Source of the DNA: an uncultured archaeon
GTDB lineage: Archaea > Aenigmatarchaeota > Aenigmatarchaeia > QMZP01
Length of the DNA: 64,000 nt
Reading direction: 5' to 3'
Assembly (NCBI GenBank): GCA_964607835.1
Contig: CAZSLL010000005.1
Location: 4,785 to 68,784, forward strand
Shown: piece by piece, positions 5,933-63,306 of the stretch
Layout of the letters: every line of letters begins with the position of its first letter
Numbering within the stretch: the first letter of the stretch is position 1
Translations under genes and position numbers: made by a program
The notes under the pieces: model-generated
Seen by the model: the letters and a program-made list of their open reading frames with translations, nothing else
Database searches by the model: none
What the model was told of the DNA's origin: nothing

Positions 5933-5935
5933 GCG

Positions 5936-31048: not shown

Positions 31049-31115
31049 CCGCATTACACCTTTCTTTACAGGAGGTCACGACCTTCCTCAAGAAAGCCGT
31101 GGGAAAGAAATAATA

Positions 31116-36954: not shown

Positions 36955-37653
36955 ATGGATATGGCAAACTTCAAGATAGTGATATCAGACCCTAAGAACA
37001 GGAAGGCCTTCCAGAAAGAGATAGAGCAGAAGGCGTCCGGTTTCATGGGCAAGAGGATAGGAGAGAAGGTCAGGGGCGACGGCCTGGGCCTTCAGGGATA
37101 CGAGTTCCAGGTCACAGGAGGCTCTGACGCGCAGGGATTCCCCATGAGGAAGGACTTCGAGGGAATAGCCAGGAAGAAGGTCATCCTCTCCAGGGGGACG
37201 GGCTTCAGGACAACCGTGAGCGGGCAGAGGAAAAGGAAGTCCGTAAGGGGCAACACAATATCCCCTGCAATTGCCCAGATAAACGCCAAGATTGTGACCT
37301 ACGGGAGCAAGCCAATTGAGGAGCTCGCTGGCAAGGCAGAGAAGAAGGAGGAAAAGCTCTCCAAGCTCTCTGAGGAGGAGAGGAAGAAGAAGCTCCAGCA
37401 GGAACTCACAGGAATGGTTGAGGAGAAGGCTCCTGAGAAGAGCAGGAGCGAACAGATAAAGGATGAGATGGAGTCCCAGACAAAATCTCCTGATTCCGGT
37501 TCTGAGAAGCCTTCAGGGGAAGAGAAGCCGAACGATGAGCCAAAAAAGAAGAAGGCTTCGGCGAAGGGCGAGTCCCATGATGAGAAGGAGGAGAAGCCTG
37601 CTGCACAGGAATCAGAGTCAAAGGAAGGCTCCTCTGATAAGAAGGAAAAGTAA
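36955..37653 (+). CDS. rps6e: Ribosomal protein S6e with a C-terminal Lys/Glu/Ser-rich extension
   Basis: KIVISDPKN...YEFQVTGGSDAQGFPMRKD matches the S6e signature. Confidence 0.8.
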   Translation: MDMANFKIVISDPKNRKAFQKEIEQKASGFMGKRIGEKVRGDGLGLQGYEFQVTGGSDAQGFPMRKDFEGIARKKVILSRGTGFRTTVSGQRKRKSVRGNTISPAIAQINAKIVTYGSKPIEELAGKAEKKEEKLSKLSEEERKKKLQQELTGMVEEKAPEKSRSEQIKDEMESQTKSPDSGSEKPSGEEKPNDEPKKKKASAKGESHDEKEEKPAAQESESKEGSSDKKEK

Positions 37654-37926
37654 CGACCAAGTGAGGCCGGGGCTTCCCGGCCGAACCTTATTTTTTGTTC
37701 AGCAGTATCTTTTGTCATCTGGTTTTGTTGAGTAGCCGGTTCTCTCGCTGAGCAGTCCAAGGTAATGCCTGAGCGTGTCCTGCTGGCTCGAGCTTGATGA
37801 ACAGGCCCTTATTGCCCAGTTTATGTCACCAAGCGACAGGTCGGTTTTCTTCATGAAGCATCTCCAATTTTGACAAGAGCTATAATATTCACGCAACTAT
37901 TTAAAACAGATTCCCCGCAGAAGGAG

Positions 37927-38067
37927 GGCGGGATGCCTACCAGCAAAGACCGAACCACCTGCACTTGTGTCCCTTCATCCTTGCGATGCAGCAGTCCTTG
38001 CAGATTTTGGCTCCCTTCGGGTTGTGTATCTCACATGTCCGGCAAACTGACTGTTTGCCGCAGTCGT
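37927..38067 (-). CDS. Small Cys-rich zinc-finger protein (46 aa)
   Basis: I translated it by hand as MTCDDCGKQSVCRTCEIHNPKGAKICKDCCIARMKGHKCRWFGLCW. It is not in the ORF track. Confidence 0.3.
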
Positions 38068-38231
38068 CGCACGTCATTAAGTGTTTACACCATGCCTTGG
38101 GGCCCGTTGAAAACAGCGTATGCTTTTCGTAATGGCCTTAAGAGAATTTACTGGGGAATCATATATTTAAGCCTTGTCCCGGGCCCGGAAAACCGGGAGC
38201 CTTATAAAAAGTTTTTCTACAAAATCAAGCC

Positions 38232-39047
38232 ATGGCACTGCAGAGGATGACGGCAAGGAAGGCCAGGATTTCTGACATAGTCAACGGCAGCTGGGTGAAG
38301 AGGGAGGGTATGGAGCCCAGCTTCGTGATTACCGGCTCGGGCGAGAAGATATCAAGGGCCAGGGTCATGGGAACCATAGTGTCTGACTTCTTCGCAGAGG
38401 ACGGGAATTTCGGAAGCGTGACCCTGGATGACGGCACAGACACCATGAGGGCCAAGACATTCAAGACCGTAAAGCCCCTGGATTCATTCAGGCCCGGGGA
38501 CACCGTGGACATGGTAGGCAAGGTAAGGGAGTACAACGGGGAGATTTACATTATTCCTGAGGTCATCGCAAAGGTTCAGGACCCAAACATGGAGCTCCTC
38601 AGGAGGCTCGAGCTCATAAGCAAGGCCAGAAACCCTCCCCCGAAGAGAGGGGAGGATTCAGGAGAGCCCCCGAAGAGAGGGGAGCAGACTGGCAGCCCTT
38701 CCGCACAGGAAGCCGGCCCAGGAGCAGGGCAGTCCTTTGTCCAGGGTCAGGAGACAGGCCAGGCAACTCCTCCGCAGGCAGAGCAAGCAACACCTTCAGA
38801 AGAAAAGACTGGTTCCACCAAGGAGGAGGACAAGGCAAAAGAGGAGCAGAGGAAGAAAGAGGAGGAGGACTCCAGGATAAGGAAGGACATCCTCTCGGTC
38901 ATAGAGTCCAACCCAGAGGGGGTGGAGTACGGCGAGATAAGCCAGAAGGTGCAGGCCGAGGAGTCCAGGATAGAGAGCGTGCTCAACGACATCCTTGCAG
39001 AGGGCATATGCTACGAGCCCACCCCAGGGAAAGTCAAGAAGATCTAG
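38232..39047 (+). CDS. RPA-like OB-fold ssDNA-binding protein with a C-terminal winged-helix domain and a PPKRGE-repeat linker
   Basis: OB-fold segment (VMGTIVSDFF...GEIYIIPEVIAK), a low-complexity linker containing PPKRGEDSGEPPKRGEQTG, and a C-terminal wH-like domain (RPA32-like architecture). Confidence 0.55.
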   Translation: MALQRMTARKARISDIVNGSWVKREGMEPSFVITGSGEKISRARVMGTIVSDFFAEDGNFGSVTLDDGTDTMRAKTFKTVKPLDSFRPGDTVDMVGKVREYNGEIYIIPEVIAKVQDPNMELLRRLELISKARNPPPKRGEDSGEPPKRGEQTGSPSAQEAGPGAGQSFVQGQETGQATPPQAEQATPSEEKTGSTKEEDKAKEEQRKKEEEDSRIRKDILSVIESNPEGVEYGEISQKVQAEESRIESVLNDILAEGICYEPTPGKVKKI

Positions 39048-40342
39048 ATTCTCTTGTCATGCTCGACAGCGTCAATAAGGTCCCTGTAGACGTCAGGATA
39101 TGCCGAATGTACCCTCTCCCAGTTGGGTATCGTGTTTACCATGTCTCCTCCGACATATATCCCGTCATCATCGAGCATCTCGCGGTGGACATCCCTCAGG
39201 ACACCCGAGAAGGTCTCGATGCTCCTTTCTTCGCCAGAGCGCTCATGTACAAGGCCCCTTGATACAGCGTCTGCCCAGTATTTCTGCTCAAAATCCTGAC
39301 CCTTGCTGAGGTACATCCTCCCGATGGCGTTCAGCGTGTCATGGCCCAGTTCCATGCCATAGGAAATCAGCCCATCATAAAGGGCCCTTGTTATGGTAGA
39401 GGCCATAACCGTGAGGCCACCTTTACCATCGTCCGTGGTGAGCTGCTGGTGAAAATGGTCAAACCTATTGGCAATGGCCTTCTGGCATATCTGGCTCTTT
39501 CTGAGCTTGCGGAACGCCTCCATCTTCTCAACGGTCTCAAGGTCATAGTCATCAGTGGTCCTTTGTTTCATGGCAAAGTCAGCGCTCTTGAATCCCTCGC
39601 CAGACAAGAGATACTTGTGGGAAAGCAGGAACCTGATTAGATTGTGGGCCTCATCGTCAGGAGAGCACTGCCTGGCCTTGGATCTCAGGGAAGCGAGAAG
39701 AGGATTCATGAAAAGCCTGGTCACCCTGCCGTTCATCCTGTCATCATCTCCTATCCTGGCATAGTAACCGGTTCCGTACTCAAAATTCATGTCCGGCTGG
39801 AGCGGGGGATGAAGGAGGTTGCCGAGCATCTCCCTGGAGTATGTCCTGATGTCGCAGTCATGGTGAGCTATGAAGCCAGACTCTCCCCTTCCGATTATCA
39901 GGCCGTCAGAGAGCCACTGGCCCTGGCCCTTCTTCCCGTTTCCCACAGGACCGACCTCCTGGCTTATCCTCTCGAGTATTTTCTGGACCCTCGGGCTGTT
40001 TATCCATATTATGTCCGCTTTCCTTTCCGGCCTCTCCAGCCTGGAGAGCTCGGAGCGGGCGTGCCTGTACTGCCCCTCATCGGCCTGGCCAAGGGGCATC
40101 ACAATCTCATGGATGTAGGGCGGTATGCCATCAAGGGTGTCGATAATGTTGTACACGGGCTTGTCCCTGGGGCCCGCCCCCTCGGGGGGCCCGAACTCCC
40201 TGTAGGATGCCGGAAGGACAAGGGCCACGTTCGTTCTCATGGCATAATCAGAAAGCTCTTCCTCAAGGTTCTCTATGGGTCCTCCGTACATCCTTAGGGT
40301 TGTTATGAACTCGGTCTGGTCGAAGTCTGACATTATGGCCAC
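39044..40342 (-). CDS. Hypothetical protein, possibly a GT-A-type glycosyltransferase
   Basis: 432 aa. It contains HHDCD and acidic motifs, but I cannot assign a family with confidence. Confidence 0.35.
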   Translation of the reverse strand: MAIMSDFDQTEFITTLRMYGGPIENLEEELSDYAMRTNVALVLPASYREFGPPEGAGPRDKPVYNIIDTLDGIPPYIHEIVMPLGQADEGQYRHARSELSRLERPERKADIIWINSPRVQKILERISQEVGPVGNGKKGQGQWLSDGLIIGRGESGFIAHHDCDIRTYSREMLGNLLHPPLQPDMNFEYGTGYYARIGDDDRMNGRVTRLFMNPLLASLRSKARQCSPDDEAHNLIRFLLSHKYLLSGEGFKSADFAMKQRTTDDYDLETVEKMEAFRKLRKSQICQKAIANRFDHFHQQLTTDDGKGGLTVMASTITRALYDGLISYGMELGHDTLNAIGRMYLSKGQDFEQKYWADAVSRGLVHERSGEERSIETFSGVLRDVHREMLDDDGIYVGGDMVNTIPNWERVHSAYPDVYRDLIDAVEHDKRI

Positions 40343-40449
40343 CTTATTTTATGAATGTAAAATATTTGGTATGCAAGAATTTAAATCTCACCGGGCCCGG
40401 GGCTACTCAAGCCTAAAAAGGTTTTGCTTCAAGATTTTCTGGGAGGCCC

Positions 40450-42468
40450 ATGATTTCCAATGTCAGGCTCAGGAACTGGAAGTCGCACCTGGAGTCAGAG
40501 TTTTCATTCTCCCCTGGCGTGAACGCCATCATCGGTATAATGGGGTCAGGAAAGACCAGCATCCTCCAGGCCATATCATTCGGGCTTTACGGAACCCTGC
40601 CTGCCCTGCAGACCAGGAGGGTGAGCATGGACGACCTGATAATGAAGAGGCCCCAGGCAATGGACGAGGCCGAGGTCGAGGTGAGCTTCTCTTCGGGTGG
40701 GGAGGAGTACTCTGTGCTCAGGGCGCTGAAGAGGGGGAAGGGAACCGTGAAGGCCGAGCTCAGGAAGGCGGGTAAGCTCCTGGAGACCAACGCCCAGGGC
40801 GTGACCAGGGAGGTGGCCAGGGTGCTGGACATGGATTACGACATGTTCTCCAAGGCCGTATACTCAGAGCAGAACTCCATAGACTATTTCATGAGGATTC
40901 CCAGGGGACAGAGGATGGAGCACATAGACAGGATGCTCAGGCTGGACAGGTTCGAGAAGGTCAGGGAGCTCACGGTAACGCTGTCCAACAGGGTGAGGGC
41001 TGAGAGGGAAGAGAAGCTTAAGATGCTCAGGGAGCTCCAGAAGGAGGGCCTTCCGGAGAGAATAGCCCGGCTCAGGGGAGAGCTCGAGGAGCTCAACAGC
41101 GGAATCGAGGAGACAGAAAGGAATGCCCATGAGGCCGAGCAGGAGGCCTCCAGGCTCGAGGAGAGGGTGGCCCTGTTCGAGAGGGATGACAGGGAGCTCA
41201 ACAACATAGAGAGGGAACTGGGCGCGGTCAGGGAGGCACTTAAGCAGACCGAGCAGTCAATCAGGGACAGGGGCCAGGGGAGCAAGGACATGGACACGGG
41301 TGGTCTGGACTCAAGGCTTGGCTCCCTGGAGCAGGCAATAAGCGAGCTCGAAGAGGGCATATCCGCATCAAGGAAGGGAATGGATAAGGGAAGGGAGGAG
41401 GTGGCCTCACTGAACGCAGAGATACGGGCGGTCAGGGAGAACCTGGAGAATCTCGGCAAGCTCAGCGGAACATGCCCGCTCTGCGAGAGCGAGCTGAACT
41501 ATGAGAAGAAGAGGGAGCTCGAGGAGTCCAGGAAGGGAAAGGAGCGGGAGCTTCTTGAGAGGGCAGCGGCTGCTGCATCAGGGATGGAGGACTCGAGGAG
41601 AGCGCTGGAGGATTTCGAGGCAAGGATGAAGGAGAGGATGGAGGAAAGGGAGAGTCTGAAAGCACTTAAAAGGGAAATAGGCTACCTCGAGGAGCTGAAC
41701 AAGAGGAGGGGCGAGCACCTTAAGAGGAGGGAGGAGCTGGAGAAGAAGAAAGGCGAGGTGAGCGCACGGCTGGATGGCCGGGACATCAGGGCGTTGAGGC
41801 AGGCCCTCCAGGAGGCGGTCTCAGAAAGGAGCGTGATGAAGGCAAGGCTGGAGTCTGCCAGGCAGAGGATAAGCGACAAGCAGGAAATGCTGAAGGACCT
41901 CAGGAAGAGAGAGGACATGATGGTGAGGTATAACCAGGAGTCCATGCAGGCACATGAGCTCCTGGAGAGGATGGGGGCATTCACAGGCGCGCTCAGGCTC
42001 ACCCAGGACCAGCTCAGGGAGGAGTTCCTCAAGAGCGTGAACCAGACCATGGACATGATATGGGCAGAGCTCTACCCCTATGGTGACTACACGGGCATAA
42101 GGCTCGCCATCGAGAAGGACTATGTGCTCCAGCTCAGGGAAAGCTCTGGGTGGCAGAACGTGGAGGGCATGGCATCGGGAGGCGAGCGCTCAGTGGCGGC
42201 CCTGGCCCTCAGGGTAGCGTTCTCAATGGCGTTCATACCCAATCTCAGGTGGCTGATACTGGACGAGCCCACCCACAACCTGGACTCCAACGCCATAGAG
42301 CATCTCACAGAGACCCTGAGGGACAGGATAGGGGCATTCGTGGAGCAGGTCTTCCTCATAACGCACGATGAGAGGGTATCTGAGGGCGTGGGCGGGAGCC
42401 TCTACAGGCTTGAGAGGGACAAGGACCAGAACGGCCCCACCAGGGTTTCGGGAACAGAGAGCGAATAA
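40450..42468 (+). CDS. rad50: Rad50 (SMC-like DNA double-strand-break repair ATPase), short form
   Basis: It has Walker A GIMGSGKTS, a long coiled coil with a central CPLC zinc hook, the ABC signature SGGERS, and Walker B LILDEPT. No mre11 gene is adjacent. Confidence 0.8.
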   Translation: MISNVRLRNWKSHLESEFSFSPGVNAIIGIMGSGKTSILQAISFGLYGTLPALQTRRVSMDDLIMKRPQAMDEAEVEVSFSSGGEEYSVLRALKRGKGTVKAELRKAGKLLETNAQGVTREVARVLDMDYDMFSKAVYSEQNSIDYFMRIPRGQRMEHIDRMLRLDRFEKVRELTVTLSNRVRAEREEKLKMLRELQKEGLPERIARLRGELEELNSGIEETERNAHEAEQEASRLEERVALFERDDRELNNIERELGAVREALKQTEQSIRDRGQGSKDMDTGGLDSRLGSLEQAISELEEGISASRKGMDKGREEVASLNAEIRAVRENLENLGKLSGTCPLCESELNYEKKRELEESRKGKERELLERAAAAASGMEDSRRALEDFEARMKERMEERESLKALKREIGYLEELNKRRGEHLKRREELEKKKGEVSARLDGRDIRALRQALQEAVSERSVMKARLESARQRISDKQEMLKDLRKREDMMVRYNQESMQAHELLERMGAFTGALRLTQDQLREEFLKSVNQTMDMIWAELYPYGDYTGIRLAIEKDYVLQLRESSGWQNVEGMASGGERSVAALALRVAFSMAFIPNLRWLILDEPTHNLDSNAIEHLTETLRDRIGAFVEQVFLITHDERVSEGVGGSLYRLERDKDQNGPTRVSGTESE

Positions 42469-42493
42469 AAGGCTTTGGTGCTACTTCTTCTCC

Positions 42494-42823
42494 ATGGTAG
42501 TGGTATGGTACAAGGGGCAGGTTGACCCGTCAAGGCTCAGGGAAACCCATGAAGAGCTTACGGATAGCCCCGGCGAACACTATATAGAGCTGGGCGAGCA
42601 TGACCTCGGAGAGGGGATGGACACCGGCCAGTCTCATGGCGCCGGGGCCACCCTCCACAACCAGGACTATGGAGTGGTTTGCAGGTTCTTCGGGGAAATA
42701 TACGGGGGCGGTGACGGGCTGGTGGTATATCTTGCCAAGCAATCCATTGACAGCAATTCGCTTCCGGCCAGCCGGGCCCTGAAATGCAGGGCCCGCGTGT
42801 TCAGGAAGAAGGGCCTGTTTTAA
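42494..42823 (+). CDS. Hypothetical protein (109 aa)
   Basis: I prefer this ORF over the antisense ORF because of its codon usage. Support is weak. Confidence 0.3.
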   Translation: MVVVWYKGQVDPSRLRETHEELTDSPGEHYIELGEHDLGEGMDTGQSHGAGATLHNQDYGVVCRFFGEIYGGGDGLVVYLAKQSIDSNSLPASRALKCRARVFRKKGLF

Positions 42824-42848
42824 TAGGGACCCCTCACAAACATAATAC

Positions 42849-43061
42849 ATGGTAGACAAAAACTCTTCCCAAGAGAAAGGGGCGAAGAAGCCGCCCCAGA
42901 AGATGAGCGAAAGGAAGTCCGTATCTGACCTTAACCAGAAGATAAAGAAGCTGGACACCAAGATGGAGACCCTGAAGAACGAGGGCTCTGAGAAAGGGGC
43001 AACCCCTGGTAAGGAATCAGGGGGCTTCCTGGAGAAGCTGAAGAGAATCTTCTCAAGGTAG
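42849..43061 (+). CDS. Small Lys-rich coiled-coil protein
   Basis: 70-aa ORF with typical composition. Confidence 0.35.
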   Translation: MVDKNSSQEKGAKKPPQKMSERKSVSDLNQKIKKLDTKMETLKNEGSEKGATPGKESGGFLEKLKRIFSR

Positions 43062-43104
43062 ACATGGACTCTGATTTAATAGGGAACCCTGACCAATAGT
43101 AAAC

Positions 43105-43695
43105 ATGGCGGTTAGAAAGAAGTCCAGGCCCTCCCCAAAGAACGCTCTTTCTGAGATGTCAAGGAAGCTGGACAGGCTGGAGAAGAAGATTGACTTCATA
43201 AAGAAAGAGCAGCTCAAGACCGAGAAAGAGGTCCACGAGGAACTGGAGAACTCAGAAGAGGCCGGCAAGGAGATTCAAAAGGTCGAGGAGGAGCTTCTCG
43301 AGCTGGGGAGGTTCACCTTCGAGAAGGAGCACGTCATGGAGCTAGCCAGGGGAGCTGCGGGGGCCTTCCTGGGAGTGGGCATAGGGATGGGAATCCGGTA
43401 CATGCCGGGAGTCGCCGAAAGCCTGGAGTGGGCGAACGCCATAGGAATACTCATATTCATATTCGCACTGGGCGGAATGCTGATATACAAGAACGAGAAG
43501 GACTGGATAAAGAAGCAGGGAATGGCCTTCATACCCAAGAGGCTCATTCACCTTTTCATAATCGCGATTGGGGTGGACCTCGTAGCGTTGGTCCTGTTCA
43601 ATGTCCTGCCTGCTGAGCCGGAATTGCTAATCAAGACACTGATAGTGGGGTCATATCCCGCGATGTCAGGGGCCATTACCTTCACCATTGCCTAG
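43105..43695 (+). CDS. Membrane protein with an N-terminal coiled coil and four C-terminal TM helices
   Basis: This call rests on hydropathy. Confidence 0.45.
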   Translation: MAVRKKSRPSPKNALSEMSRKLDRLEKKIDFIKKEQLKTEKEVHEELENSEEAGKEIQKVEEELLELGRFTFEKEHVMELARGAAGAFLGVGIGMGIRYMPGVAESLEWANAIGILIFIFALGGMLIYKNEKDWIKKQGMAFIPKRLIHLFIIAIGVDLVALVLFNVLPAEPELLIKTLIVGSYPAMSGAITFTIA

Positions 43696-43952
43696 TCCAG
43701 GGACATTATGAGCAGGCCGTGCTTCTGCAGTGCGGCCTGGTCCCAGAACAGGGCATCTTTCGTCCTCATGGCATAGCCCACACTCTTCTCAAGCACCCTT
43801 CCGGTGAAGGCCCCCTTCCCAGGGTCCCACTCCCTGAGGACCAGGATGTCACCTGGCCGGCAGTCGAAATCCGCTATCCTGGCGTCAAACCTCTTCCTGC
43901 CTTCAAGAATGGCCCGGAACATATCCGGCCAGCACTTCTTCTCGATTCTCAT
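43692..43952 (-). CDS. ASCH/PUA-like domain protein (DUF3850-like)
   Basis: MRIEKKCWPDMFRAILEGRKRFDARIADFDCRPGDILVLREWDP fits the pattern of ASCH-like small proteins. Confidence 0.5.
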   Translation of the reverse strand: MRIEKKCWPDMFRAILEGRKRFDARIADFDCRPGDILVLREWDPGKGAFTGRVLEKSVGYAMRTKDALFWDQAALQKHGLLIMSLD

Positions 43953-43990
43953 GGCTAACAGTTGGCTTGCTGAAATAAAAACCGCAGGGA

Positions 43991-44995
43991 TTATCTTGCG
44001 CCCTCTGCTTCCTTCTCTATCCTGTTCCTCTCGGACACGGAGAAGCTCTTGGAGTCGTTGTTGTAGGCGGCTATGAGCTCCTCTGCTATGACCTGGGACA
44101 GGCTCTTTGTCTTCCTGAACGAGGCCCTGTATATGCCCTGGGAAAGGTGCCTGAGGGCTATGTCCAGCCTTCTCTGGGGAGAGGCGATTACAGAGTTCCT
44201 GGCTATTATGCCACCCAGCCTGTAGGATGCAACCTCCTCGAGCAGGGCGGCGTTCTCAATGGCCCCCACAAGGACCTGGACCGGGTTCTGCTTGGTCCTC
44301 TTCTCTATGAGAATGAATGCCTCTTTCATGCTGTTGTAGAGCCTGGGGGTCTTGCCCACGTTGTTTCCTGAGGTAATCTTGTGCTTCTTGCCCCTGTGGC
44401 CGGCCACCATGAGCTTGTTCATGAACCTCTCGATTACCGAAATCTTTCTTTTCTGGATGCTGTCCCTGTTGTACCTCCCGCCGGTCCTTGGCACAGCAAG
44501 GGTGTCCAGGTTCATGTACTTCTTCAGGCCGGCATCTTTAAGGGCAACGTCAGAGGTGTCCCATCTGTTGAAAAGGAGCATCCTCACACCATGCTGTCTC
44601 AGGAGGGAGACCCTCTCTTCTGTTTGCTCCCCTCTCTTCGGGGGAGACTCTGTTTGCTCCCCTCTCTGCGCGGGGGGCTTCTCTTTCATCTCCGCTTTCT
44701 GCGCGGGGGGCTTCTCTTTCATCTCCGCTTTCTGCGCGGGGGGCTTCTCTTTCATCTCCGCTTTCTGCGCGGGGGCTGATGACTGCTCCGCTTTCTGCGC
44801 GGGCCTTGCATCAGGCTTCCTGTCCTCATTCTTCTCAGGAGAGGGCTTCTTCACCTGAGGCTTTTCCTCGGGTGGTTTTGCCGGGGGTTTCTCATTAACA
44901 TGCTGTGCCTCAGTCTTTGCATGGTCAGCCTTGCCTGTGCTGGCATTGGCCTTGTCCTCTTCAGGGGGCTTTGCCCCGGTCTTCTCCTCAGTCAT
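43991..44995 (-). CDS. rps7: Ribosomal protein uS7 with a long N-terminal Lys/Glu-rich repeat extension of about 150 aa
   Basis: The C-terminal 190 aa are S7 (NSMKEAFILIEKRTKQNPVQVLVGAIENA...). The N-terminus contains three copies of KPPAQKAEMKE and also SPPKRGEQTE. Confidence 0.85.
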   Translation of the reverse strand: MTEEKTGAKPPEEDKANASTGKADHAKTEAQHVNEKPPAKPPEEKPQVKKPSPEKNEDRKPDARPAQKAEQSSAPAQKAEMKEKPPAQKAEMKEKPPAQKAEMKEKPPAQRGEQTESPPKRGEQTEERVSLLRQHGVRMLLFNRWDTSDVALKDAGLKKYMNLDTLAVPRTGGRYNRDSIQKRKISVIERFMNKLMVAGHRGKKHKITSGNNVGKTPRLYNSMKEAFILIEKRTKQNPVQVLVGAIENAALLEEVASYRLGGIIARNSVIASPQRRLDIALRHLSQGIYRASFRKTKSLSQVIAEELIAAYNNDSKSFSVSERNRIEKEAEGAR

Positions 44996-45089
44996 TCCTC
45001 ACCTGCAAAACCATGGCCCACCAGGAACCCGCAAAAGCGGCAGGCCAGCGTGCGCCATGCTCCGGGCCATGTGTCAGAGACTCGCGCAA

Positions 45090-45512
45090 TCACGCGCCCT
45101 TGGGCTTCTCCTTCTTGCCCTTGAGCAGTTCGTTCAGGGAAACCCCTGACACCCCTGTGACCTTGTACTTGATTCCGTGCATGGAACCCACGGCCCCTCC
45201 CTGGGAACCGCCCATGCCCTCGAGCATGACCTCGTTGTGCTCGTCCACGAACTTGATTGCATTGGTTCCCGGCACGAATGCCGTGACCTGGATGCCGTTC
45301 TTGATGAGCTGGACCCTCGCGGCCTTGATTATCCCGGAGTGGGGCTGCTTCTGCTCCACTCCCTTCTTCTTGAGCACAATGCCCCTTCCGAGAGGGGCTC
45401 CCTGCAGAGGCTCCTTTTTCCAGAGCTTCTGGAACTTCCTCTTGTGGTTGGTGCTCTTCCACCTGAACTTCTTCCTTCTCCGCTTCAGGTCCCTTGCGTT
45501 GAACTCTCCCAT
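45090..45512 (-). CDS. rps12: Ribosomal protein uS12
   Basis: It has [19 protein letters not shown] and [18 protein letters not shown]. Confidence 0.9.
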
Positions 45513-45681
45513 ACTAACCTATCCTTCGGGTGCCAAGCACCCGCATGCGCTCCGGTGCGATTGAGCCCTTGATAAAAGGCCTATAATATATTAACCGTTA
45601 ACGGTTATTGTCTGTGAAATTATCTCAATAGTTATTTAAATAGGTTTTTAAAGGTAATGCGGCCCTCGCTCCGGAATTCCG

Positions 45682-45882
45682 TCACAGGTGGTGCTTGACG
45701 CCCACGGCAGTGTTAATCCATAGCAGGCCGCCTATGAGGATGAATATGAGGGACACCACCATGGCAATGGCATAGCCCATCTCGCTCACTCCGAGGCCGA
45801 ACTCCAGGTTGTTGACTATCCAGGCACCTAAAAGAACGAACACTCCTCCCAGAACCCATGAGAAAATGAGTTTGGAGGACAT
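45682..45882 (-). CDS. Small two-TM membrane protein
   Basis: 66 aa and hydrophobic. Confidence 0.35.
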   Translation of the reverse strand: MSSKLIFSWVLGGVFVLLGAWIVNNLEFGLGVSEMGYAIAMVVSLIFILIGGLLWINTAVGVKHHL

Positions 45883-45884
45883 GA

Positions 45885-46667
45885 TTATAATTTGCCGGCG
45901 TTCTTTTTAAATTCCTCAGCCTTGGTCTGCAGGAGCTCAGCGGCCCTCTCCACTATGGCAGCGGGCTCCAGGCCTGAAACGCTTTCCACCCTGAAGACGA
46001 ACTTCGATGGATTGGCCCTTACCTTCACGCCCTCGGCCTTCTCGCAGTTGAGGCAAAGGTCACACTTAGCGGGGTCCTTTATGGTCAGCTTGCCCGCCTT
46101 GAGCTCAAGCACATCCCTGGGGCAAAGGGAAACGGCATTCTTAAGGTCAGCGGGCTTGGCGTCCTTGCTCACCTCCACTTCCGGGTAGTACTGATAGGCC
46201 GCGTTGGCTGCCTGCCACTTGGCGTGCTTCCTGCCAGTGCCAATCTCTGCCCTGGCCTCGAACCTGAGCTCCTGGTTGTCCAGCAGCTCTGCGATGGGGA
46301 ACTTGGGGCTCGTGGCCTTTACGTCCTTGTTGGTGGATTTCAGGTCACCTGAGTATACCACCTTTGGGCCCTTGGCGTCCACTGCGAACACCACTTCGCA
46401 GACAGGGCAGCCCTTGCCACCGCATTTGCACTCCTCTTTGGTGCTGAACTTTGAGGGGTCGAACTTGAGGGGCATGAGGCCCAGCCTGTGGGCCAAAACC
46501 TCGTCAAATAGTATGGTGCTGTTCTGGTGGAAATCCACCCATTCCACCGCCATGGTTGGAACCTCTGATATCATTATCCTCCTGAGAGCGTTAGCGAACG
46601 CTGGAGTGGCGCCCTCGAGCACAAAAGTGAGGGTATCTCCCTTCTTGTTAAGCACATTGACCTTCAT
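45885..46667 (-). CDS. rpoD: DNA-directed RNA polymerase subunit D (Rpo3) with a 4Fe-4S-type Cys cluster
   Basis: It has ATPAFANALRRIMISEVP and HRLGLMPL, plus the Cys clusters CKCGGKGCPVCE and CDLCLNC. Confidence 0.8.
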   Translation of the reverse strand: MKVNVLNKKGDTLTFVLEGATPAFANALRRIMISEVPTMAVEWVDFHQNSTILFDEVLAHRLGLMPLKFDPSKFSTKEECKCGGKGCPVCEVVFAVDAKGPKVVYSGDLKSTNKDVKATSPKFPIAELLDNQELRFEARAEIGTGRKHAKWQAANAAYQYYPEVEVSKDAKPADLKNAVSLCPRDVLELKAGKLTIKDPAKCDLCLNCEKAEGVKVRANPSKFVFRVESVSGLEPAAIVERAAELLQTKAEEFKKNAGKL

Positions 46668-46690
46668 GAAATCTTCCTCCCTGGCACCCC

Positions 46691-47095
46691 TCACCTCAGC
46701 CTCACTGCCTTGATGCCGAAATGCCTCTTCATAATATCCTTTATCGCCTTAATATTCTTACCGTTCTTGCCTATCACAGCCACCCTGTCGCTGGCGGGCA
46801 CGGTCATGTTCACGTTCTCGCCCCTGACCTCCACGTTCTTGGCGGTGGGGACCATGCCCTTTATCATCTCAGCGGGCTCCTTGTGGTACGGGAAGAGCCT
46901 TATGCTCTTGCCAAGGGATTTGCTGACCTCCTTTATGTTGGAGCCGTTCCTTCCTATGGCGACCCCCAGCTTGTCAGGCTCCACCAGGAAATAGAGCGTG
47001 TCCTCGACCTCGATGCAGTCCTTTGCATGCACCCTGGTCATCTTCTCGAATGCCGCTATTATCCTGATGGTCTGCGTCTCAAGCTTGACTGGCAT
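46691..47095 (-). CDS. nusA: Archaeal NusA homologue (two KH domains)
   Basis: The two KH motifs are VAIGRNGSNIK and AVIGKNGKNIKAI. It sits next to L30e, as is typical. Confidence 0.75.
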   Translation of the reverse strand: MPVKLETQTIRIIAAFEKMTRVHAKDCIEVEDTLYFLVEPDKLGVAIGRNGSNIKEVSKSLGKSIRLFPYHKEPAEMIKGMVPTAKNVEVRGENVNMTVPASDRVAVIGKNGKNIKAIKDIMKRHFGIKAVRLR

Positions 47096-47136
47096 CGAAT
47101 CATTTCCCTTGTTATTTCTTTACCCCGTGGCTTAAA

Positions 47137-47400
47137 TCACTTTTTGATGGCTATGAGCAGTATGCTGAAGGGCTTTCCGCAGAGCTCCCCCAGCTGCAGA
47201 GAGTTGCCCGGGTACTCCTGGGCAGTGAATCCTGATATGCCTGAGTAGTGGCTGATGTCCTCCACCGTGCCCCTGGGGGCGTTCTTCGCGTATATGACGC
47301 TCTCGACCTTCCCGTTCCGGACAGCCCTGAGCACGCCCCTGGTTCCTATGAGGAGCCTCTTCTCCTTGATTGCGTCCTTGATGTCGTTGTCTATTGCCAT
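47137..47400 (-). CDS. rpl30e: Ribosomal protein L30e
   Basis: The signature is KEKRLLIGTRGVLRAVRNGKVESVIYAKNAP. Confidence 0.8.
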   Translation of the reverse strand: MAIDNDIKDAIKEKRLLIGTRGVLRAVRNGKVESVIYAKNAPRGTVEDISHYSGISGFTAQEYPGNSLQLGELCGKPFSILLIAIKK

Positions 47401-47401
47401 G

Positions 47402-47752
47402 CTATCCTATCCCCACGTTAGAGCGCGGAGGGGCCTGCATGCCCTCCTGCCTTCTCTTCTCAAGAAGGGCCCTCTTCTTGAGCCTGAAGAACTCCTGGTA
47501 GCTTTCCCAGACATCCTTCTGGTCAGCCTTCTCCACCCTCTTGACCGCTATCATCCTGGGCCTGTTCATCTTCTCGCTTATCGGGTAGTAGTCCACCAGG
47601 ACCATGTCCCCTTTCCTGAGCTGGGCCGCTATGTCATCTGAAACCTTGACTGTGTGGAGGTTCTGGTCCCAGAACCTGACAGTCGCGGCCGCGGCCTCTG
47701 CCTTTCCCCTGGAAGGGAACACGCTGAGCACCTTACCCGGATGGAAGACCAT
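47402..47752 (-). CDS. Hypothetical protein (116 aa) between S8 and L30e
   Basis: Conserved-looking ORF that I cannot assign to a family. Confidence 0.4.
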   Translation of the reverse strand: MVFHPGKVLSVFPSRGKAEAAAATVRFWDQNLHTVKVSDDIAAQLRKGDMVLVDYYPISEKMNRPRMIAVKRVEKADQKDVWESYQEFFRLKKRALLEKRRQEGMQAPPRSNVGIG

Positions 47753-47761
47753 GAAAACACC

Positions 47762-48148
47762 TCAGTACACGAACCCCAGGAGCTTTCCTCCTGTCCCTTT
47801 CTCCCTTGCCTCCCTCTGGTCCATGATGCCCTGGGAGGTCGTGAGTATGAGAAAGCCTATGCCCTCTGCCGGAAGGAACCTCTTCTCCCACCTTATGAAC
47901 TCCTGCACAGGGACAGAGAACCTGGGCTTGACCACATTGGCGTTGTTTATCCTGCCCAGGAGCTTTATCCTGAACTTCCCGCCCTTTCCGTCGTTGATGT
48001 ACTCAAACTCTCCAATGTAGCCGTGCTTCTGCATGGCCTTGAGCACGCCCTTGATTACCTTGGACGCGGGCGTGGTGCACTCCTTCCTTCCGATTGCCTC
48101 AGTGTTCTTAACTATGGAGAACACGTCAGCCAGCAAGTCATGTCTCAT
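47762..48148 (-). CDS. rps8: Ribosomal protein uS8
   Basis: It has LLADVFSIVKNTEAIGRKE and HGYIGEFEYINDGKGGK. I chose the start at the internal ATG. Confidence 0.85.
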   Translation of the reverse strand: MRHDLLADVFSIVKNTEAIGRKECTTPASKVIKGVLKAMQKHGYIGEFEYINDGKGGKFRIKLLGRINNANVVKPRFSVPVQEFIRWEKRFLPAEGIGFLILTTSQGIMDQREAREKGTGGKLLGFVY

Positions 48149-48156
48149 ATCATCAC

Positions 48157-48378
48157 CTAATCGAACTTCCTGAACCCGAGCTTCTCGGCCTCCTCCCTGA
48201 AGCACTGCCTGCAGTACAGGAGCCCGTACTTCCTGATTAGCCCGGCCTTCTTGCCGCACTTCCTGCATTCCCGAACGTTCTTGCCGAACTTGCGGTCCTT
48301 TGTCTTGTTGAACCTGTCGTACCTGGCAGCCTTCACAGGCTTGTTTTCTATGGATTTCCTCACTTTCTCGAATGTCAT
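48157..48378 (-). CDS. rps14: Ribosomal protein uS14 (zinc-binding type)
   Basis: It has [25 protein letters not shown]. Confidence 0.85.
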
Positions 48379-48395
48379 GTCGCACCTCTTCCGGG

Positions 48396-48926
48396 CTAGT
48401 AGCCCCTTTCCACCTCGTCTGTCACCTTTATCTGGAAATTATCCTTCATCCACTTCTGAGCATCATCAGGGGTTATCCTGTGGCTCCTGCCGATTCTTCG
48501 GGGCCTGAGCCTCCTCCTGGACACCCTGAAACCCGGCCTTTTGAGTGTGAGGCAGACGTCAAAGCCTATGATTCCGATGTCAGGGTCGTACTTGATGCCC
48601 GGGATGTGGATGTACTCTGCTATGCCGAAGGACACGTTGCCCTGCCTGTCGAACTGCCCTGGCTTCAGCCTGTTCTCCTTGGCCTCCAGGAGCTTCCTTA
48701 TGAGCTCCATGGCCTCCTGGCCCCTTACTGTGACCTTGGCGCCTATGGGCCTTCCCTTGGCCCCTCCGAAGGTGCTCCTCTTTATGGAGTAGGTGGTGAC
48801 CACCTTCTTCTGGGAGAGCTTGGCGAGCAGGGCCTTTCCCTTCTCCAGCCCCGGGCCAGCCTCCCCGGCCCCAATGTTGAGGGTGAGCTTGTCCAGCACT
48901 ATCCTTCGCATGGTGTTCTCTGCCAT
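48396..48926 (-). CDS. rpl5: Ribosomal protein uL5
   Basis: Full-length family similarity ([11 protein letters not shown]..., [11 protein letters not shown]). Confidence 0.85.
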
Positions 48927-48936
48927 GTCATCACCC

Positions 48937-49629
48937 TCACTTCTTTGCCTCCGGGTCCTCGGTTATGAATATGTAGTCTCTCAGGGTCTTGATGTCCTTC
49001 TTCCCTGACTCCAGTATCACAGTGGACTTCTCAAGCATGTGCTGCTTCCTCTCGATATCCTTTATCCTTCCCCTGGTACCTGCGTTCCTTCCCGCGGTTA
49101 CTATGCAGTGGGCGCCCTTCTCGAACCTGTGGTGCTTCAGCACCTTCTGGCCCGGGATGGAAATGGTTATTGAGTCTCCCACGCTGTAGGAGTCCTTCTT
49201 GACTAGGATGTTTCTGCTGTCATGGAGGTTGAGCTGCTGGATTCCCTTCTTAAGGGTGGTCTTGCCCGATATCCTGCACAGCTTCTGGGATGCATCCGCC
49301 TCCCTGATCTCCCCGGGAACCAGTCCGCCCTTTCCAGGGAGAATGGCGTAATGCTTCTTGACCTGGGGTATGGAAATCACGTCCATGAGCCCGACAGGGA
49401 AATGGTCATCCTTCCTGGGCTTCTGGTCCACGAGCACGAGCTTCCTGTTCAGGATGTCCCTGGCTTCCTTTGCGTTGTCAGCCAAACCCAGCACGTTCCT
49501 CAGGAGCATCCTCAGGGGTATGCATTCCCTCTTTGCGTGGGGGCCCGGCCTGGGAGTGGCCGCGAACTTGTCGCCCTTCCTTCTCATCTTCCACATGCCG
49601 GGTATTCCCAGCCTCTTTATGTGCGTCAT
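48937..49629 (-). CDS. rps4e: Ribosomal protein S4e
   Basis: The S4e signature is present (HIKRLGIPGMWKM, PVGLMDVISI). Confidence 0.85.
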   Translation of the reverse strand: MTHIKRLGIPGMWKMRRKGDKFAATPRPGPHAKRECIPLRMLLRNVLGLADNAKEARDILNRKLVLVDQKPRKDDHFPVGLMDVISIPQVKKHYAILPGKGGLVPGEIREADASQKLCRISGKTTLKKGIQQLNLHDSRNILVKKDSYSVGDSITISIPGQKVLKHHRFEKGAHCIVTAGRNAGTRGRIKDIERKQHMLEKSTVILESGKKDIKTLRDYIFITEDPEAKK

Positions 49630-49633
49630 ATCA

Positions 49634-50233
49634 TCACTTTTTCTCTTTCAGCTCCGCTTTCTGCGCGGGGGCTGCTGACTCCTCCGCTTTCTGCGCGGGG
49701 GCTGCTGACTCCTCCGCTTTCTGCGCGGGGGGCTTCTCTGTTTTCCTCTCCCCTCTCTTCGGGGGAGACTCTTTCTGCTCCCCTCTCTTCGGGGGAGACT
49801 CTGTCTGCTCCCCTCTCTTCGGGGGAGACTTTTCAGAGCGCTCCAGTATGGCCTGCCTCTTCTTGTCATCCAGCTTGAGCTTCGTTATCATTATGTTCGA
49901 GGGCTGCAGCGGCATGTGCACCTCTGAGCCGTCGCTCTTCTTGGTTTTGAGCTCCTCCACGTATACCCTGCTCTTCCCAACATCGACCCGGTCAACGGTC
50001 CCGAGCTTCTTCCTGAGGGAGCCCCTGAGGACCTTTACCTCGTCTCCCTTGCGAACCCGCATGGACCTCCTGCTGTAGCGCTTCCTGAGCTCAGGGGACA
50101 GGTGCACGGAGAGGAAGGACTGCCTCACATGGGACGGGGCGTTGAGCCTGTATTTCCTCTGCTTCCTGGGCTGGACGCTCGCCAGCCAGCTCTTTGACCA
50201 GTTCTTAATCATGCCTATCTTCCTCTCCTTCAC
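49634..50233 (-). CDS. rpl24: Ribosomal protein uL24 with a C-terminal repeat extension
   Basis: The KOW region is VRKGDEVKVLRGSLRKKLGTV. The C-terminus has three copies of SPPKRGEQxE and three of APAQKAEES. Confidence 0.8.
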   Translation of the reverse strand: MKERKIGMIKNWSKSWLASVQPRKQRKYRLNAPSHVRQSFLSVHLSPELRKRYSRRSMRVRKGDEVKVLRGSLRKKLGTVDRVDVGKSRVYVEELKTKKSDGSEVHMPLQPSNIMITKLKLDDKKRQAILERSEKSPPKRGEQTESPPKRGEQKESPPKRGERKTEKPPAQKAEESAAPAQKAEESAAPAQKAELKEKK

Positions 50234-50377
50234 CGTATCCGGCCGGCCTCACCGGCATGTATCCCTTCTCTTCCATGCGGGAATCATATACAGACCAGTT
50301 TTCTCCAACTTTCCCGAGCATCCACTCATCCACGGGCCTTCCGTTCACCTTCAGTGTCGGGGTTTTTTCGAAAATCA

Positions 50378-50776
50378 TCATACCACCTGTTTTGATATCT
50401 TGCCTATGGTGGAGAACCTCTCGACAGCCTCCCTTGCCACAGGGCCCTTGACGAGCGAGCCCCTTGCCTCGCCCTTGTCGTTTATGAGCACAACGGCGTT
50501 GTCCTCGAACGATACCCTCAGGCCGCTGGCCCTCCTGTAGGGCCTCCTCTGCCTTATGACAACGGCCTTGTGGACCTCATGCCTTACCTTGACCTCGCCC
50601 TTTATGACCTTGACGTTGACCCAGCTCGCCACCCCCGCGGCGGGCTTGGTGAGCCTCTTGCCCTTGTACCCCTTTACGGATATTATCTGCACTATCTTGG
50701 CGCCGCTGTTGTCAGCGCAAACCAGCTCAGCGCCTACCGGAAGGCCCCTTGTTATCCTGGTGGAGATAGCCTTCAT
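50378..50776 (-). CDS. rpl14: Ribosomal protein uL14
   Basis: It has LVCADNSGAK and the uL14 signature. Confidence 0.9.
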   Translation of the reverse strand: MKAISTRITRGLPVGAELVCADNSGAKIVQIISVKGYKGKRLTKPAAGVASWVNVKVIKGEVKVRHEVHKAVVIRQRRPYRRASGLRVSFEDNAVVLINDKGEARGSLVKGPVAREAVERFSTIGKISKQVV

Positions 50777-50785
50777 GAAAATCAC

Positions 50786-51268
50786 CTATTTGCCTGTCTC
50801 CCCTTTCTTGGGGCGAGACTTCCCGGCCTCCTTTTTGGATACAGGTTTTTCCTGGGATTTGTCTGGAGATGACTTCTTCTCAGAGGCCTTCTTCACTGCC
50901 TCCTCCTCAATCTCAGCCACCTTGAACTCTGTCTGCTCCACTTTCCTCTTGGGAACGGCAACCACCACGAAGCTCTTGGTCTTGGAGAGGGGCCTGCACT
51001 CCGCTATGACCACCTCGTCGCCGTCCCTGGCCTTCTGGCAGGGCGGGTTGTATGCTACCACCCTGCTCCTGCGCCTCTCGTACCTCTCGTACTTTGGAAC
51101 GAGCTTGGTGTAGCCCCATTCTACAATGACTGTCCGCCTGGCCTTGGATGACCTGACCACTCCCTGGAAGGTCCTTCCCCTGACTGACAGGTTTCCGTGC
51201 CATGCACATTTCCTGTCATCGCACTCCCTCTCAGGGGGCTTCACTGGTATCCCGATGCTCTTCCTCAT
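50786..51268 (-). CDS. rps17: Ribosomal protein uS17 with a C-terminal Lys/Glu-rich tail
   Basis: It has GIPVKPPERECDDRKCAWHGNLSVRG, consistent with archaeal uS17. Confidence 0.8.
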   Translation of the reverse strand: MRKSIGIPVKPPERECDDRKCAWHGNLSVRGRTFQGVVRSSKARRTVIVEWGYTKLVPKYERYERRRSRVVAYNPPCQKARDGDEVVIAECRPLSKTKSFVVVAVPKRKVEQTEFKVAEIEEEAVKKASEKKSSPDKSQEKPVSKKEAGKSRPKKGETGK

Positions 51269-51520
51269 GCACTCTTTCTCCTCGACTGCAAGCACTCCTG
51301 CATACATTCCGGTTCGATATCACGAACGGTGCTGACTCCTCACCCGGCAGTGCGGGCAGAGCGTATTCACATGTAGAGAAACAATCAAGCCTCTCTACCT
51401 TCACCGGACCGCGGCCCGGTGGTGGGTAACTCAGCCTATCGCTAGGTAGCATGCCTTTAAACACGCTCTGTGAGTTAACTAATTAGATGCACCACTGTAT
51501 TTAAAAAGCTTTTGCAGAGG

Positions 51521-51799
51521 CTACCATTTCCTCTGCTTCTTCTTGACCCTGTCCTCTGGCCTGGCCACCAGCAGGCTTCCCCTGACCCTCACCCACTGGC
51601 CCGAGGGAATTCGGAAAGAGAAGACGCACTGGTCCTTGGGGAGGTGGCTCACCTTACCCTGGGATTCTATGGAGAGCATGTTCCTGGACTCGTCCACCAC
51701 CCTGCCGCCTATGCCCGTGTGGGCTGGGTTGGAGGACTGCGTGACCTTGACCTCCAGGCCCACGAGCTCGTGCCTGACCAGGTTCTCAGGGGTTATCAT
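51521..51799 (-). CDS. rnp1: RNase P protein component Rpp29 (Pop4)
   Basis: It has ELVGLEVKVTQSSNPAHTGIGGRVVDESRN, and sits in the canonical position between S17 and SUI1. Confidence 0.75.
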   Translation of the reverse strand: MITPENLVRHELVGLEVKVTQSSNPAHTGIGGRVVDESRNMLSIESQGKVSHLPKDQCVFSFRIPSGQWVRVRGSLLVARPEDRVKKKQRKW

Positions 51800-52011
51800 G
51801 CTATATTATTGGATTCCGGAATTAATATGCTTGAAAAAGCCTGGCAACAAGGTTTATCAAGGTTATTAACCAGGAATCCAGCCTACCAGGTATTCTGGAC
51901 AGCCTACTGGGGGCTGGCATCACTGCTTATCATGGCATATATAATGAGCATCTGAACCCAGCAAGAGCAGGGGCTAGAACCAGTTCCATTGCCAGCGGTT
52001 CGGATGGACAG

Positions 52012-52317
52012 CTATGCGACCTCAATCTGGTCCCTAGAGAATCCCAGCTTGACCAGGACCTCAAGGACCTTGTTCCTGTGGTTTCCCTGGAGCTCTATAA
52101 CGTTTCCCTTTAGAGTGCCTCCGCAAGCAAGCCTGTTCTTGAGCTCTTTCAGAATCCGCTTGTTGTCAGAGTCCTTGCCGATTCCCTCGACAACGGTTAT
52201 GTGCTTTCCGTATCTTCTCCTGTCCACCGAGACCCGTATGCTTTCCTTCTCCTTCGCTATGGTCTCGCATGCGCAGAGTTCCTTGGGAAGACCGCATTTT
52301 TCGCAGATTTTATCCAT
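52012..52317 (-). CDS. sui1: Translation initiation factor SUI1/aIF1
   Basis: It has KHITVVEGIG and GGTLKGNVIELQGNHRNKV. Confidence 0.85.
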   Translation of the reverse strand: MDKICEKCGLPKELCACETIAKEKESIRVSVDRRRYGKHITVVEGIGKDSDNKRILKELKNRLACGGTLKGNVIELQGNHRNKVLEVLVKLGFSRDQIEVA

Positions 52318-52537
52318 TAGCCTTCTTTCCCTCCGGATTTACAGACCTCTCCCTCTCGATGGTGAGAATTCTCGCAATGCTTCGCCTGGTGTGCTTTATC
52401 TGTCCGGGAGAAGTCACGGAAGCCCCTATGTTTATCTTTGCCCGCTCCTTCGAGAGCCCGAGCCGTAGCTCGTCAAGCTTCTTCCGGGCGTCCTTGCTGT
52501 CAAGCTTCCTTATGTCCTTTTTCTTCATGGTTGCCAT
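52310..52537 (-). CDS. rpl29: Ribosomal protein uL29
   Basis: It is small and basic, with a KELRxxxxxEL-type uL29 signature, and sits in the conserved position. Confidence 0.75.
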   Translation of the reverse strand: MATMKKKDIRKLDSKDARKKLDELRLGLSKERAKINIGASVTSPGQIKHTRRSIARILTIERERSVNPEGKKANG

Positions 52538-52585
52538 ATGTTCACTTCATAATTGTTTAGAATGATTTAAATTGGTGCCTGGGGC

Positions 52586-53952: not shown

Positions 53953-53963
53953 GACTATGCTCC

Positions 53964-63296: not shown

Positions 63297-63306
63297 TCCA
63301 TATTCA

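Follow-up and report, generated by a model that had tools for sequence, protein, structure and literature searches.

How did the same short pieces of DNA come to stand, in frame, in the coding sequences of unrelated genes of one archaeon? The question is raised by a stretch of 64,000 nucleotides of contig CAZSLL010000005.1 (hereafter the window), which holds genes of an Aenigmarchaeota-like chromosome, among them those of the core ribosomal protein cluster, RNA polymerase subunit D and S12/S7. Two kinds of repeat unit, A and B, occur in the genes of a FlaI-like ATPase, an RPA-like protein and the ribosomal proteins uS7, uL24 and uS3, with degenerate copies in uS17. These units probably form a single young coding minisatellite family, copied between putatively disordered protein tails that already existed and then expanded.

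Common DNA ancestry of the units

The core of unit B is CCC CCG AAG AGA GGG GAG (PPKRGE) and that of unit A is CCC GCG CAG AAA GCG GAG (PAQKAE), each of 18 nt. The complete unit measures 30 nt (10 codons), sometimes 33 nt, and encodes S-P-P-K-R-G-E-x-x-E in subtype B and x-A-P-A-Q-K-A-E-x-x in subtype A. Laid out in register, the cores A and B define 21 units in five genes, each in sense and in the coding frame. The family A pattern TCCGCTTTCTGCGCGGGGG has 11 matches at three mismatches or fewer in the window (0.02 expected from dinucleotide-preserving shuffles) and the family B pattern CTCCCCTCTCTTCGGGGGAGACTCT has nine (0.00 expected), with a tenth B copy at 38661-38690. The five loci are spread over 43 kb and every copy is oriented with the transcription of its gene, including the tract of the RPA-like gene, the only one on the plus strand. 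The window yielded no copy between genes, on an antisense strand or out of frame. The earlier note on this DNA had described the repeats as lying in frame in several unrelated genes, and the 21 in-sense units in five genes confirmed by Pfam bear this out.

The peptides PPKRGE and PAQKAE are each encoded by the same six codons in every copy. Codons of the cores are minority choices in this genome (AGA 11%, AAA 12%, GCG 13%, CCG 18% and GGG 21%, from a table of 4,375 codons of the window with the repeats left out), and the probability of the codon set given the peptide is 1.2e-3 per copy for B and 5.8e-4 for A. The DNA similarity also extends over longer blocks common to two genes: 62 nt at 98% between uL24 and uS3, 59 nt at 95% between uS7 and uL24, 56 nt at 93% between uS7 and uS3 and 55 nt at 93% between FlaI and uS7. 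The DNA copies are accordingly more alike than the protein requires, a check that had been proposed beforehand.

The copies might be thought to have arisen by independent, codon-level convergence on a favoured low-complexity peptide, the more so because the tails of these proteins are compositionally alike throughout the clade. Convergence would have to deliver identical rare codons in 21 copies, at about 1e-3 per copy given the peptide, as well as the blocks of 55-62 nt. In four related loci (12-21 kb, of similar composition) no between-tail match was found, the longest match being 27 nt and outside the tails. The relatives have similar tails without such matches and therefore the sharing is specific to this genome and no by-product of low complexity. 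We regard convergence, which the earlier note had named as an outcome that would overturn its proposal, as hardly credible; it is refuted by the codon identity. Judged from these identical rare codons, all copies are shown to have a common DNA ancestry.

The earlier note spoke of two repeats. Of the 18 positions of the core, 14 are the same in A and B, and hybrids between them occur at the boundaries of the A and B arrays in two genes. The hybrid of uS7 reads CCC GCG CAG / AGA GGG GAG (PPAQ/RGEQTE) and that of FlaI reads CCC CCG AAG / AAA GCA (SPPK/KAN); both are in register, and in both the crossover is placed at the centre of the core. These junctions show that A and B recombine in register. 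Core identity and in-register chimeras together make A and B one family with two subtypes, rather than two repeats.

Host proteins and their probably disordered tails

The host genes, their tracts and the further segments that resemble the units are as follows (protein domains in residues).

9565-11481, minus strand: gene of the FlaI-like type II/IV secretion ATPase, 638 aa (Pfam T2SSE, 173-398)
9583-9723, minus strand: C-terminal tract of FlaI, with two B units (9664-9723), the partial hybrid unit SPPK/KAN (9643-9663) and two A units (9583-9642)
38232-39047, plus strand: gene of the RPA-like protein, an OB fold plus an RPA_C winged helix (Pfam tRNA_anti-codon OB, 55-112; RPA_C, 179-261)
38631-38690, plus strand: two B units in the interdomain linker of the RPA-like protein, B only
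43991-44995, minus strand: uS7 gene, 334 aa, with an N-terminal extension of about 150 aa (Pfam Ribosomal_S7, 167-334)
44621-44809, minus strand: uS7 tract, in protein order two A units (30 nt), two A units (33 nt), the A/B hybrid (44651-44680) and one B unit (44621-44650)
49634-50212, minus strand: uL24 gene (Pfam Ribosomal_L26, 12-125)
49646-49831, minus strand: uL24 tract, with B units at 49742-49831 and A units at 49646-49735
50791-50820, minus strand: end of uS17 with KSRPKKGETGK directly before the stop codon, a degenerate B unit (score 18.5, null maximum 14)
50926-50954, minus strand: uS17 segment VPKRKVEQTEF, 24 of 29 nt identical to B, score 19 against a null maximum of 14
52586-53572, minus strand: uS3 gene, 328 aa, with a C-terminal tail of about 128 aa (Pfam KH_2, 16-85; Ribosomal_S3_C, 98-181); an identical protein is already on record
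52745-52801, minus strand: A unit (52745-52774) and a preceding degenerate A unit in uS3, with a 56-nt block 93% identical to uS7
52886-52945, minus strand: two identical B units in the uS3 tail, with 62 nt 98% identical to uL24
62446-62472, minus strand: KPAPQKGAKKG, a marginal A/B-like segment of a membrane protein tail (score 15, null maximum 14; nhmmer E = 0.07); an uncertain member

Tandem Repeats Finder places arrays at 9648-9722, 38637-38698, 44657-44775, 49652-49731, 49748-49834 and 52883-52946, with a period of 30 or 33 and 94-100% match. The uS7 array has period 33 and 3.6 copies (97%), the FlaI-like array period 30 and 2.5 copies (100%), and the two uL24 arrays period 30 with 2.7 copies (100%) and 2.9 copies (94%). 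An array holds two to six units and the copy number varies between loci. In FlaI the last A unit is followed by KKANPKE and the stop codon, and the linker between units specific to this locus is GAA AAA GAG TCA. The upstream flank of the uS3 array, GAA AAA GAG TCT, equals this linker except for the synonymous change of TCA to TCT. The degenerate A unit of uS3 (PVKKAE) has the core CCC GTA AAG AAA GCG GAG, which agrees with the A core at 15 of 18 positions. The uS7 tract runs from A to B in protein order, the opposite of the other genes. The C-terminal tail of uL24 (69 aa) is made up wholly of three B and three A units. Its stop codon (49634-49636) lies 10 nt past the last A core and the start codon of eS4 (49629) follows 4 nt on; therefore the array is situated directly upstream of a tightly coupled gene junction.

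All units fall outside every folded Pfam domain of their five host proteins, so that the placement in terminal or linker regions reported at the outset holds throughout. The tails consist of about 90-100% disorder-promoting residues by composition. Residues 582-637 of FlaI are without predicted secondary structure, with a pLDDT of about 35 in an AlphaFold model that is poor overall (mean pLDDT 59.8).

Were these extensions created by the units? By its repeat-free eS4, encoded next to uL24, the window belongs with Aenigmarchaeota-like DPANN archaea, and the nearest lineages besides its own are only 55-64% identical. The ribosomal protein cluster was compared with that of four relatives (L043, L044, L047/L048 and L049). 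Tails rich in K/E/P/A stand at the same seven positions in all four; their sequences are unrelated between lineages, and no A or B unit was found in them. The C-terminus of uL24 extends over 61-102 aa in the relatives and that of uS3 over 73-93 aa, and the N-terminal extension of uS7 covers about 88-115 aa (the gene call of L044 had clipped its own). Tails are likewise present at the C-termini of uS17, eS4 and eS6 and in the interdomain linker of the RPA-like protein, which in the L044 and L049 orthologues is shorter, acidic/basic and free of units. The tail of eS4 is 20-75 aa long across 15 members of the clade and is found in none outside it.

Since the relatives have unit-free tails at the same sites, the units did not create the extensions. 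This comparison shows the tails to be older than the units, and such tails are an ancestral, fast-evolving trait of one Aenigmarchaeota-related (DPANN) clade. The units occupy or replace part of a pre-existing tail that turns over quickly and, in uL24, all of it. The FlaI-like protein is different. Its closest orthologues (67-73% identity) have 557-578 aa and a basic tail of only about 35 aa, and the protein of the window runs about 70 residues further, about 50 of them repeat; a real addition of residues by the units is, by this alignment, indicated for the FlaI tail only. Hence the claim that the repeats add 50 to 150 residues to conserved proteins stands for the FlaI-like protein and fails for the ribosomal and RPA-like proteins. 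The figure itself needs correction as well: the units supply about 20-66 residues per protein, and the extensions of unit-free relatives are similarly long. A 90% cluster that unites the FlaI-like protein with fragments of 33-46 aa was set aside as a clustering artefact.

In the window itself eS4 (48937-49629, minus strand) has a tail of 8 aa only, TEDPEAKK, though every relative of the clade has a tail. Its near-absence here indicates that tails are lost as well as gained. A small membrane protein (62396-62959, minus strand; no Pfam match) carries a K/A/P/Q-rich C-terminal tail of about 70 aa, so that in this genome such tails are not limited to ribosomal proteins.

The repeats have altered more than sequence. 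The net charge of the uL24 and uS3 tails is +10 to +19 in the relatives (uL24 +13 to +19), whereas here it is +4 in uL24 and -3 in uS3. A B unit is neutral and an A unit contributes -1, and for this reason the two tails are near neutral here. Calculated charges thus indicate that the physical character of the tails was changed from polycationic to that of a near-neutral polyampholyte.

The relatives also duplicate and share short pieces of their tails. The eS4 tail of L044 holds a 27-nt unit twice (96%), a tandem duplication outside the window's lineage. A module of about 27 nt in L043, which encodes (D/A)TQKG(A/T) with the minor Gln codon CAA, is common to the tails of uL24, eS4 (twice) and uS3 at 70-85% identity. 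The more general motif (H)TQ[KRH]G[AT][GS] recurs near the C-terminal ends of differing ribosomal-protein tails across lineages, with copies at these places.

L043: 6824-6841, 9942-9959, 10718-10735 and 10829-10846
L047: 4469-4486
Proteins: P0003 and P0011

Its recurrence suggests either an older exchange of modules between tails or a conserved short linear motif. The movement of small modules between tails seems, from these comparisons, to be recurrent in the clade, and the window records an unusually recent and extensive episode. We found no description in the searchable literature of clade-wide K/E/P/A tails on uS3, uS7, uS17, uL24, eS4 and eS6 (region 36955-54024 of the window), and these tails are perhaps a more lasting observation than the repeats.

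Probable copying between tails and the other explanations

The usual view is that each disordered tail evolves at its own locus, by point mutation and local slippage. In this genome one and the same DNA module has recently entered the tails of several essential proteins that are unrelated to one another, ribosomal proteins included. The course of events that we favour would begin with a unit that arose once. The best B matches of the window outside the arrays are the two uS17 segments. The degenerate B unit KSRPKKGETGK was not found in uS17 of the relatives. VPKRKVEQTEF, on the other hand, is conserved in all four, which marks it as ancestral and as a plausible progenitor; at this stage we offer it as a hypothesis only, namely that the unit arose from the conserved segment PKRKVEQTE of uS17. 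Non-allelic recombination, gene conversion or replication template switching would then have carried copies of the unit into the coding regions of other tails, a transfer made easier by the similarity of the tails in codon composition. Local amplification by slipped-strand or unequal exchange would have come afterwards. Selection would leave only the in-frame, sense copies in disordered regions, because other copies in essential genes would be lethal.

Copying followed by slippage fits the unequal lengths of the arrays, the multi-unit blocks, the chimeras, the partial units at the flanks and the reversed order in uS7. Two of the readings offered initially, namely gene conversion between loci and a low-complexity module confined to the lineage, agree with the rare identical codons, the shared blocks, the hybrids at the junctions and the ancestral tails.

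Several points weigh against this course of events. The cores are identical at 18 of 18 positions in all 45 + 45 unit pairs, without a synonymous change. Identity over the four linker codons is no more than about 50-75%; about 40-50% of the linker sites differ, with at least five synonymous differences between loci (TCT/TCA, CAG/CAA, ACA/ACT, GCC/GCT and CCC/CCT). By a rough Poisson estimate about seven synonymous core changes would be expected from the linker rate and none is seen (p about 5e-4). Such a contrast between invariant cores and variable linkers is not what plain neutral decay after copying would give. Furthermore, A units are as similar within loci as between loci (24.1 and 24.1 of 30), so that local amplification is not clearly the latest step. 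No simple fall-off of unit similarity with genomic distance was found, and the RPA-like gene is the most divergent though it lies 6 kb from uS7. Tracts so short fall below the usual homology requirement for recombination. In the collections no relative of the same genus was found that could date or polarise the events.

An invariant core could possibly result from continual homogenisation, from copying of the core only or from a constraint on the nucleotides. Consequently the core, of 18-24 nt, might be a coding module that is actively propagated and kept identical by sequence-specific copying or homogenising, which we consider unlikely. If this were true, a reduced archaeal genome would have a new means, other than transposition or the ordinary local slippage of tandem repeats, of distributing a linear peptide motif over its proteome, and the motif would have reached the tails of the ribosome, of a replication protein and of a pilus/archaellum ATPase.

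The earlier note called the repeats hairpin-forming. Short stems are indeed present, of only 6 bp in B and 4 bp in A, and they are of ordinary stability. As DNA, the units fold at -4.4 to -5.5 kcal/mol (z = -1.0 to -1.9) and 4-14% of shuffles are as stable; as RNA, they are equalled or surpassed by 15-23% of the synonymous recodings of their peptide. Whole tracts stand at the 49th (uS7) and 5th (uL24 tail) percentile of their recodings. A peptide with proline (CCN) before glycine-glutamate (GGN GAG) is self-complementary almost by construction. Rfam returned no match at the arrays. After the comparison of DNA with shuffles and of RNA with recodings and the folds of whole tracts, the hairpin was rejected as a distinguishing feature; the stems may be an aid to slippage and give no evidence for a palindromic element.

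Could the core be held constant because it works? It may be under selection as a linear motif recruited to several proteins, since SPPK resembles an S/T-P-x-K/R site, or as a signal in DNA or RNA; the function would then be the reason why copies are kept and homogenised. The core is invariant at synonymous sites too while the linkers vary, variation in the B unit is limited to two codons, and the (H)TQ[KRH]G[AT][GS] motif of the clade's ribosomal-protein tails suggests that tails carry motifs. An unrelated protein, P0152 (582 aa, eukaryote-like, membrane/KH-domain), has about 20 decapeptides APPAQKAE[KM]V, nearly the peptide of unit A; these repeats may reflect either convergence or a shared origin with unit A. 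Against such selection, peptide selection alone cannot yield identical rare codons, the structure stays within the nulls at the percentiles given above, and the inconsistent position of the tracts relative to the gene ends argues against a signal in mRNA. No partner or kinase was identified and the relatives do without the motif. We judge a functional core to be unlikely, if somewhat less so than active propagation.

The repeats had been likened to the Rickettsia palindromic elements (RPE), and a mobile coding mini-element similar to these or to miniature inverted-repeat transposable elements (MITE), inserted in frame and spread in a transposition-like manner, would place the same units in at least five unrelated genes, always in frame. 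The short internal palindromes and the true addition of the FlaI tract relative to its closest orthologues speak in the same direction. The unit, however, has just 30 nt and stands in tandem arrays of variable copy number, without terminal inverted repeats or target-site duplications at the arrays. The array boundaries differ at each locus, with partial or chimeric units at some ends. In uL24, uS3 and uS7 the units replace an earlier tail and interrupt no conserved sequence. A mobile element would also be at odds with 64 kb that hold no intergenic, antisense or out-of-frame copy, and with hairpins that are not exceptional.

Searches of the genome and metagenome collections with the B core, and of the viral collection with both cores, found nothing related either. 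The 18-mer of the B core has 12 matches in the genome_contigs and 29 in the metagenome_contigs collection, all single, at chance level and in unrelated bacteria, none in tandem; in the viral collection B has no match and A has two single matches. An index-free HMMER scan of 1.84 billion representatives gave three matches, none archaeal, and among these representatives no carrier of the module was found other than the unrelated P0152. A word-indexed protein search with the uL24 tail returned no match and is uninformative, as the repeat-bearing uS7, uS3, FlaI-like and RPA-like proteins of the window are in that collection. A mobile element is thus improbable.

Repeats are known to cause assembly errors and the contig (77,297 nt) is metagenome-derived, so that a short-read assembly could have misjoined or duplicated a repeat; the copy numbers of the arrays are those of the assembly. 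On the other hand, all five reading frames are open through the arrays, the flanking sequences are unique and orthologous, linker variants and junctions are particular to each locus, and arrays of 60-190 nt are within or near read length. Two Logan contigs of run SRR7048225, made with a different assembler, are 100% identical to the window. One (L050) ends at 44746 within the uS7 array and the other (L042) starts at 49681 within the A array of uL24, which is the behaviour expected of a de Bruijn graph at a multi-copy repeat and confirms the junctions of unique and repeated sequence. An assembly artefact is unlikely, indeed very much so. In practice, repeats of this kind interrupt short-read assemblies within ribosomal protein genes that serve as phylogenetic markers.

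Copying between tails therewith retains the better part of our confidence. If it is general in the clade, low-complexity regions can evolve in concert across a proteome. The window also offers a tractable case for the question of whether tails carry motifs or only composition.

Known systems and other features of the window

Histone H1-like tails of the SPKK type are rich in lysine, proline and alanine and are found on nucleic-acid-binding proteins. The units described here differ from such basic K/P/A-rich tails in being near charge-neutral and identical in DNA between proteins of one genome. The tails of eukaryotic ribosomal and nucleic-acid-binding proteins (PMC11764897) are similar to those of this clade in being disordered, charged terminal extensions whose sequence turns over while the composition is conserved.

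The nearest phenomenon on record is the amino acid tandem repeats (aaTR) of the Borg elements of Methanoperedens (PMC9879509). These are also archaeal, perfect or near-perfect head-to-tail nucleotide repeats in open reading frames (ORF), with a unit divisible by three; they make or remodel disordered regions, as the units here probably do, evolve fast, formed recently and have partial repeats at the flanks of the arrays. The window holds arrays that qualify as aaTR (at least three units, at least 50 nt, a unit divisible by three, in an ORF). In Borgs, the unit sequence is essentially unique to each locus and of independent origin (PMC9879509), whereas here one unit family is common to at least five genes. 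The hosts differ as well: the proteins with Borg aaTR are mostly extracellular or membrane proteins, and here they are chromosomally encoded and include essential ribosomal proteins. Furthermore, the organism is a DPANN-type archaeon and its units are not on a Borg extrachromosomal element.

Two bacterial systems share fewer traits. The mycobacterial interspersed repetitive units (MIRU), in the account of Supply et al. 1997 as relayed in PMC5056196, measure 40-100 bp and are mainly intergenic within operons. As far as that account goes, they resemble the present units in being a prokaryotic minisatellite with related tandem units at dispersed loci, oriented with transcription, of variable copy number and without obvious long palindromes; the units of the window differ in having 30-33 nt and in lying wholly in coding sequence, in one frame. 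The RPE are outlined in PMC10969869 as palindromic and MITE-like, of about 100-150 bp, inserted singly and also outside genes. Within that outline the likeness is confined to repeated DNA that lies in frame in unrelated genes and encodes a conserved peptide tolerated by the host protein. The units of the window have 30 nt, stand in tandem, contain palindromes of 4-6 bp, show no element ends and were seen only in pre-existing, probably disordered tails. The analogy originally drawn with the RPE consequently goes no further than in-frame occurrence and breaks down on length, palindrome, ends and, over the 64 kb, non-coding copies. What distinguishes the family among coding tandem repeats in disordered regions is the recent sharing between loci in essential genes.

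Other features of the window are independent of the units. ARAGORN reported no tRNA in the whole window. Rfam identifies a tRNA at 30904-31053 (plus strand; 150 nt, 39.8 bits) that evidently contains an intron and was missed by ARAGORN. A tRNA-like stretch of about 230 nt at 63068-63298 (plus strand), which runs GGGCCCGTAGTTCAATGG ... GCGGGCCCA with long internal stem-loops, was called by neither program. It shares a hairpin segment of 45 nt, AGCGTTCGCGGAAAGRACGCT, with the stretch 25440-25560 (plus strand), where the segment occupies 25487-25531. Judged from their sequence, both stretches may represent either tRNA genes interrupted by large introns or a small RNA of unknown kind. Finally, a 62-nt tandem repeat (2.5 copies, 98% identical) occupies the intergenic region 5771-5956, between the gene of an ArsA/GET3-like ATPase (4746-5711, minus strand) and the gene at 6168-7112.

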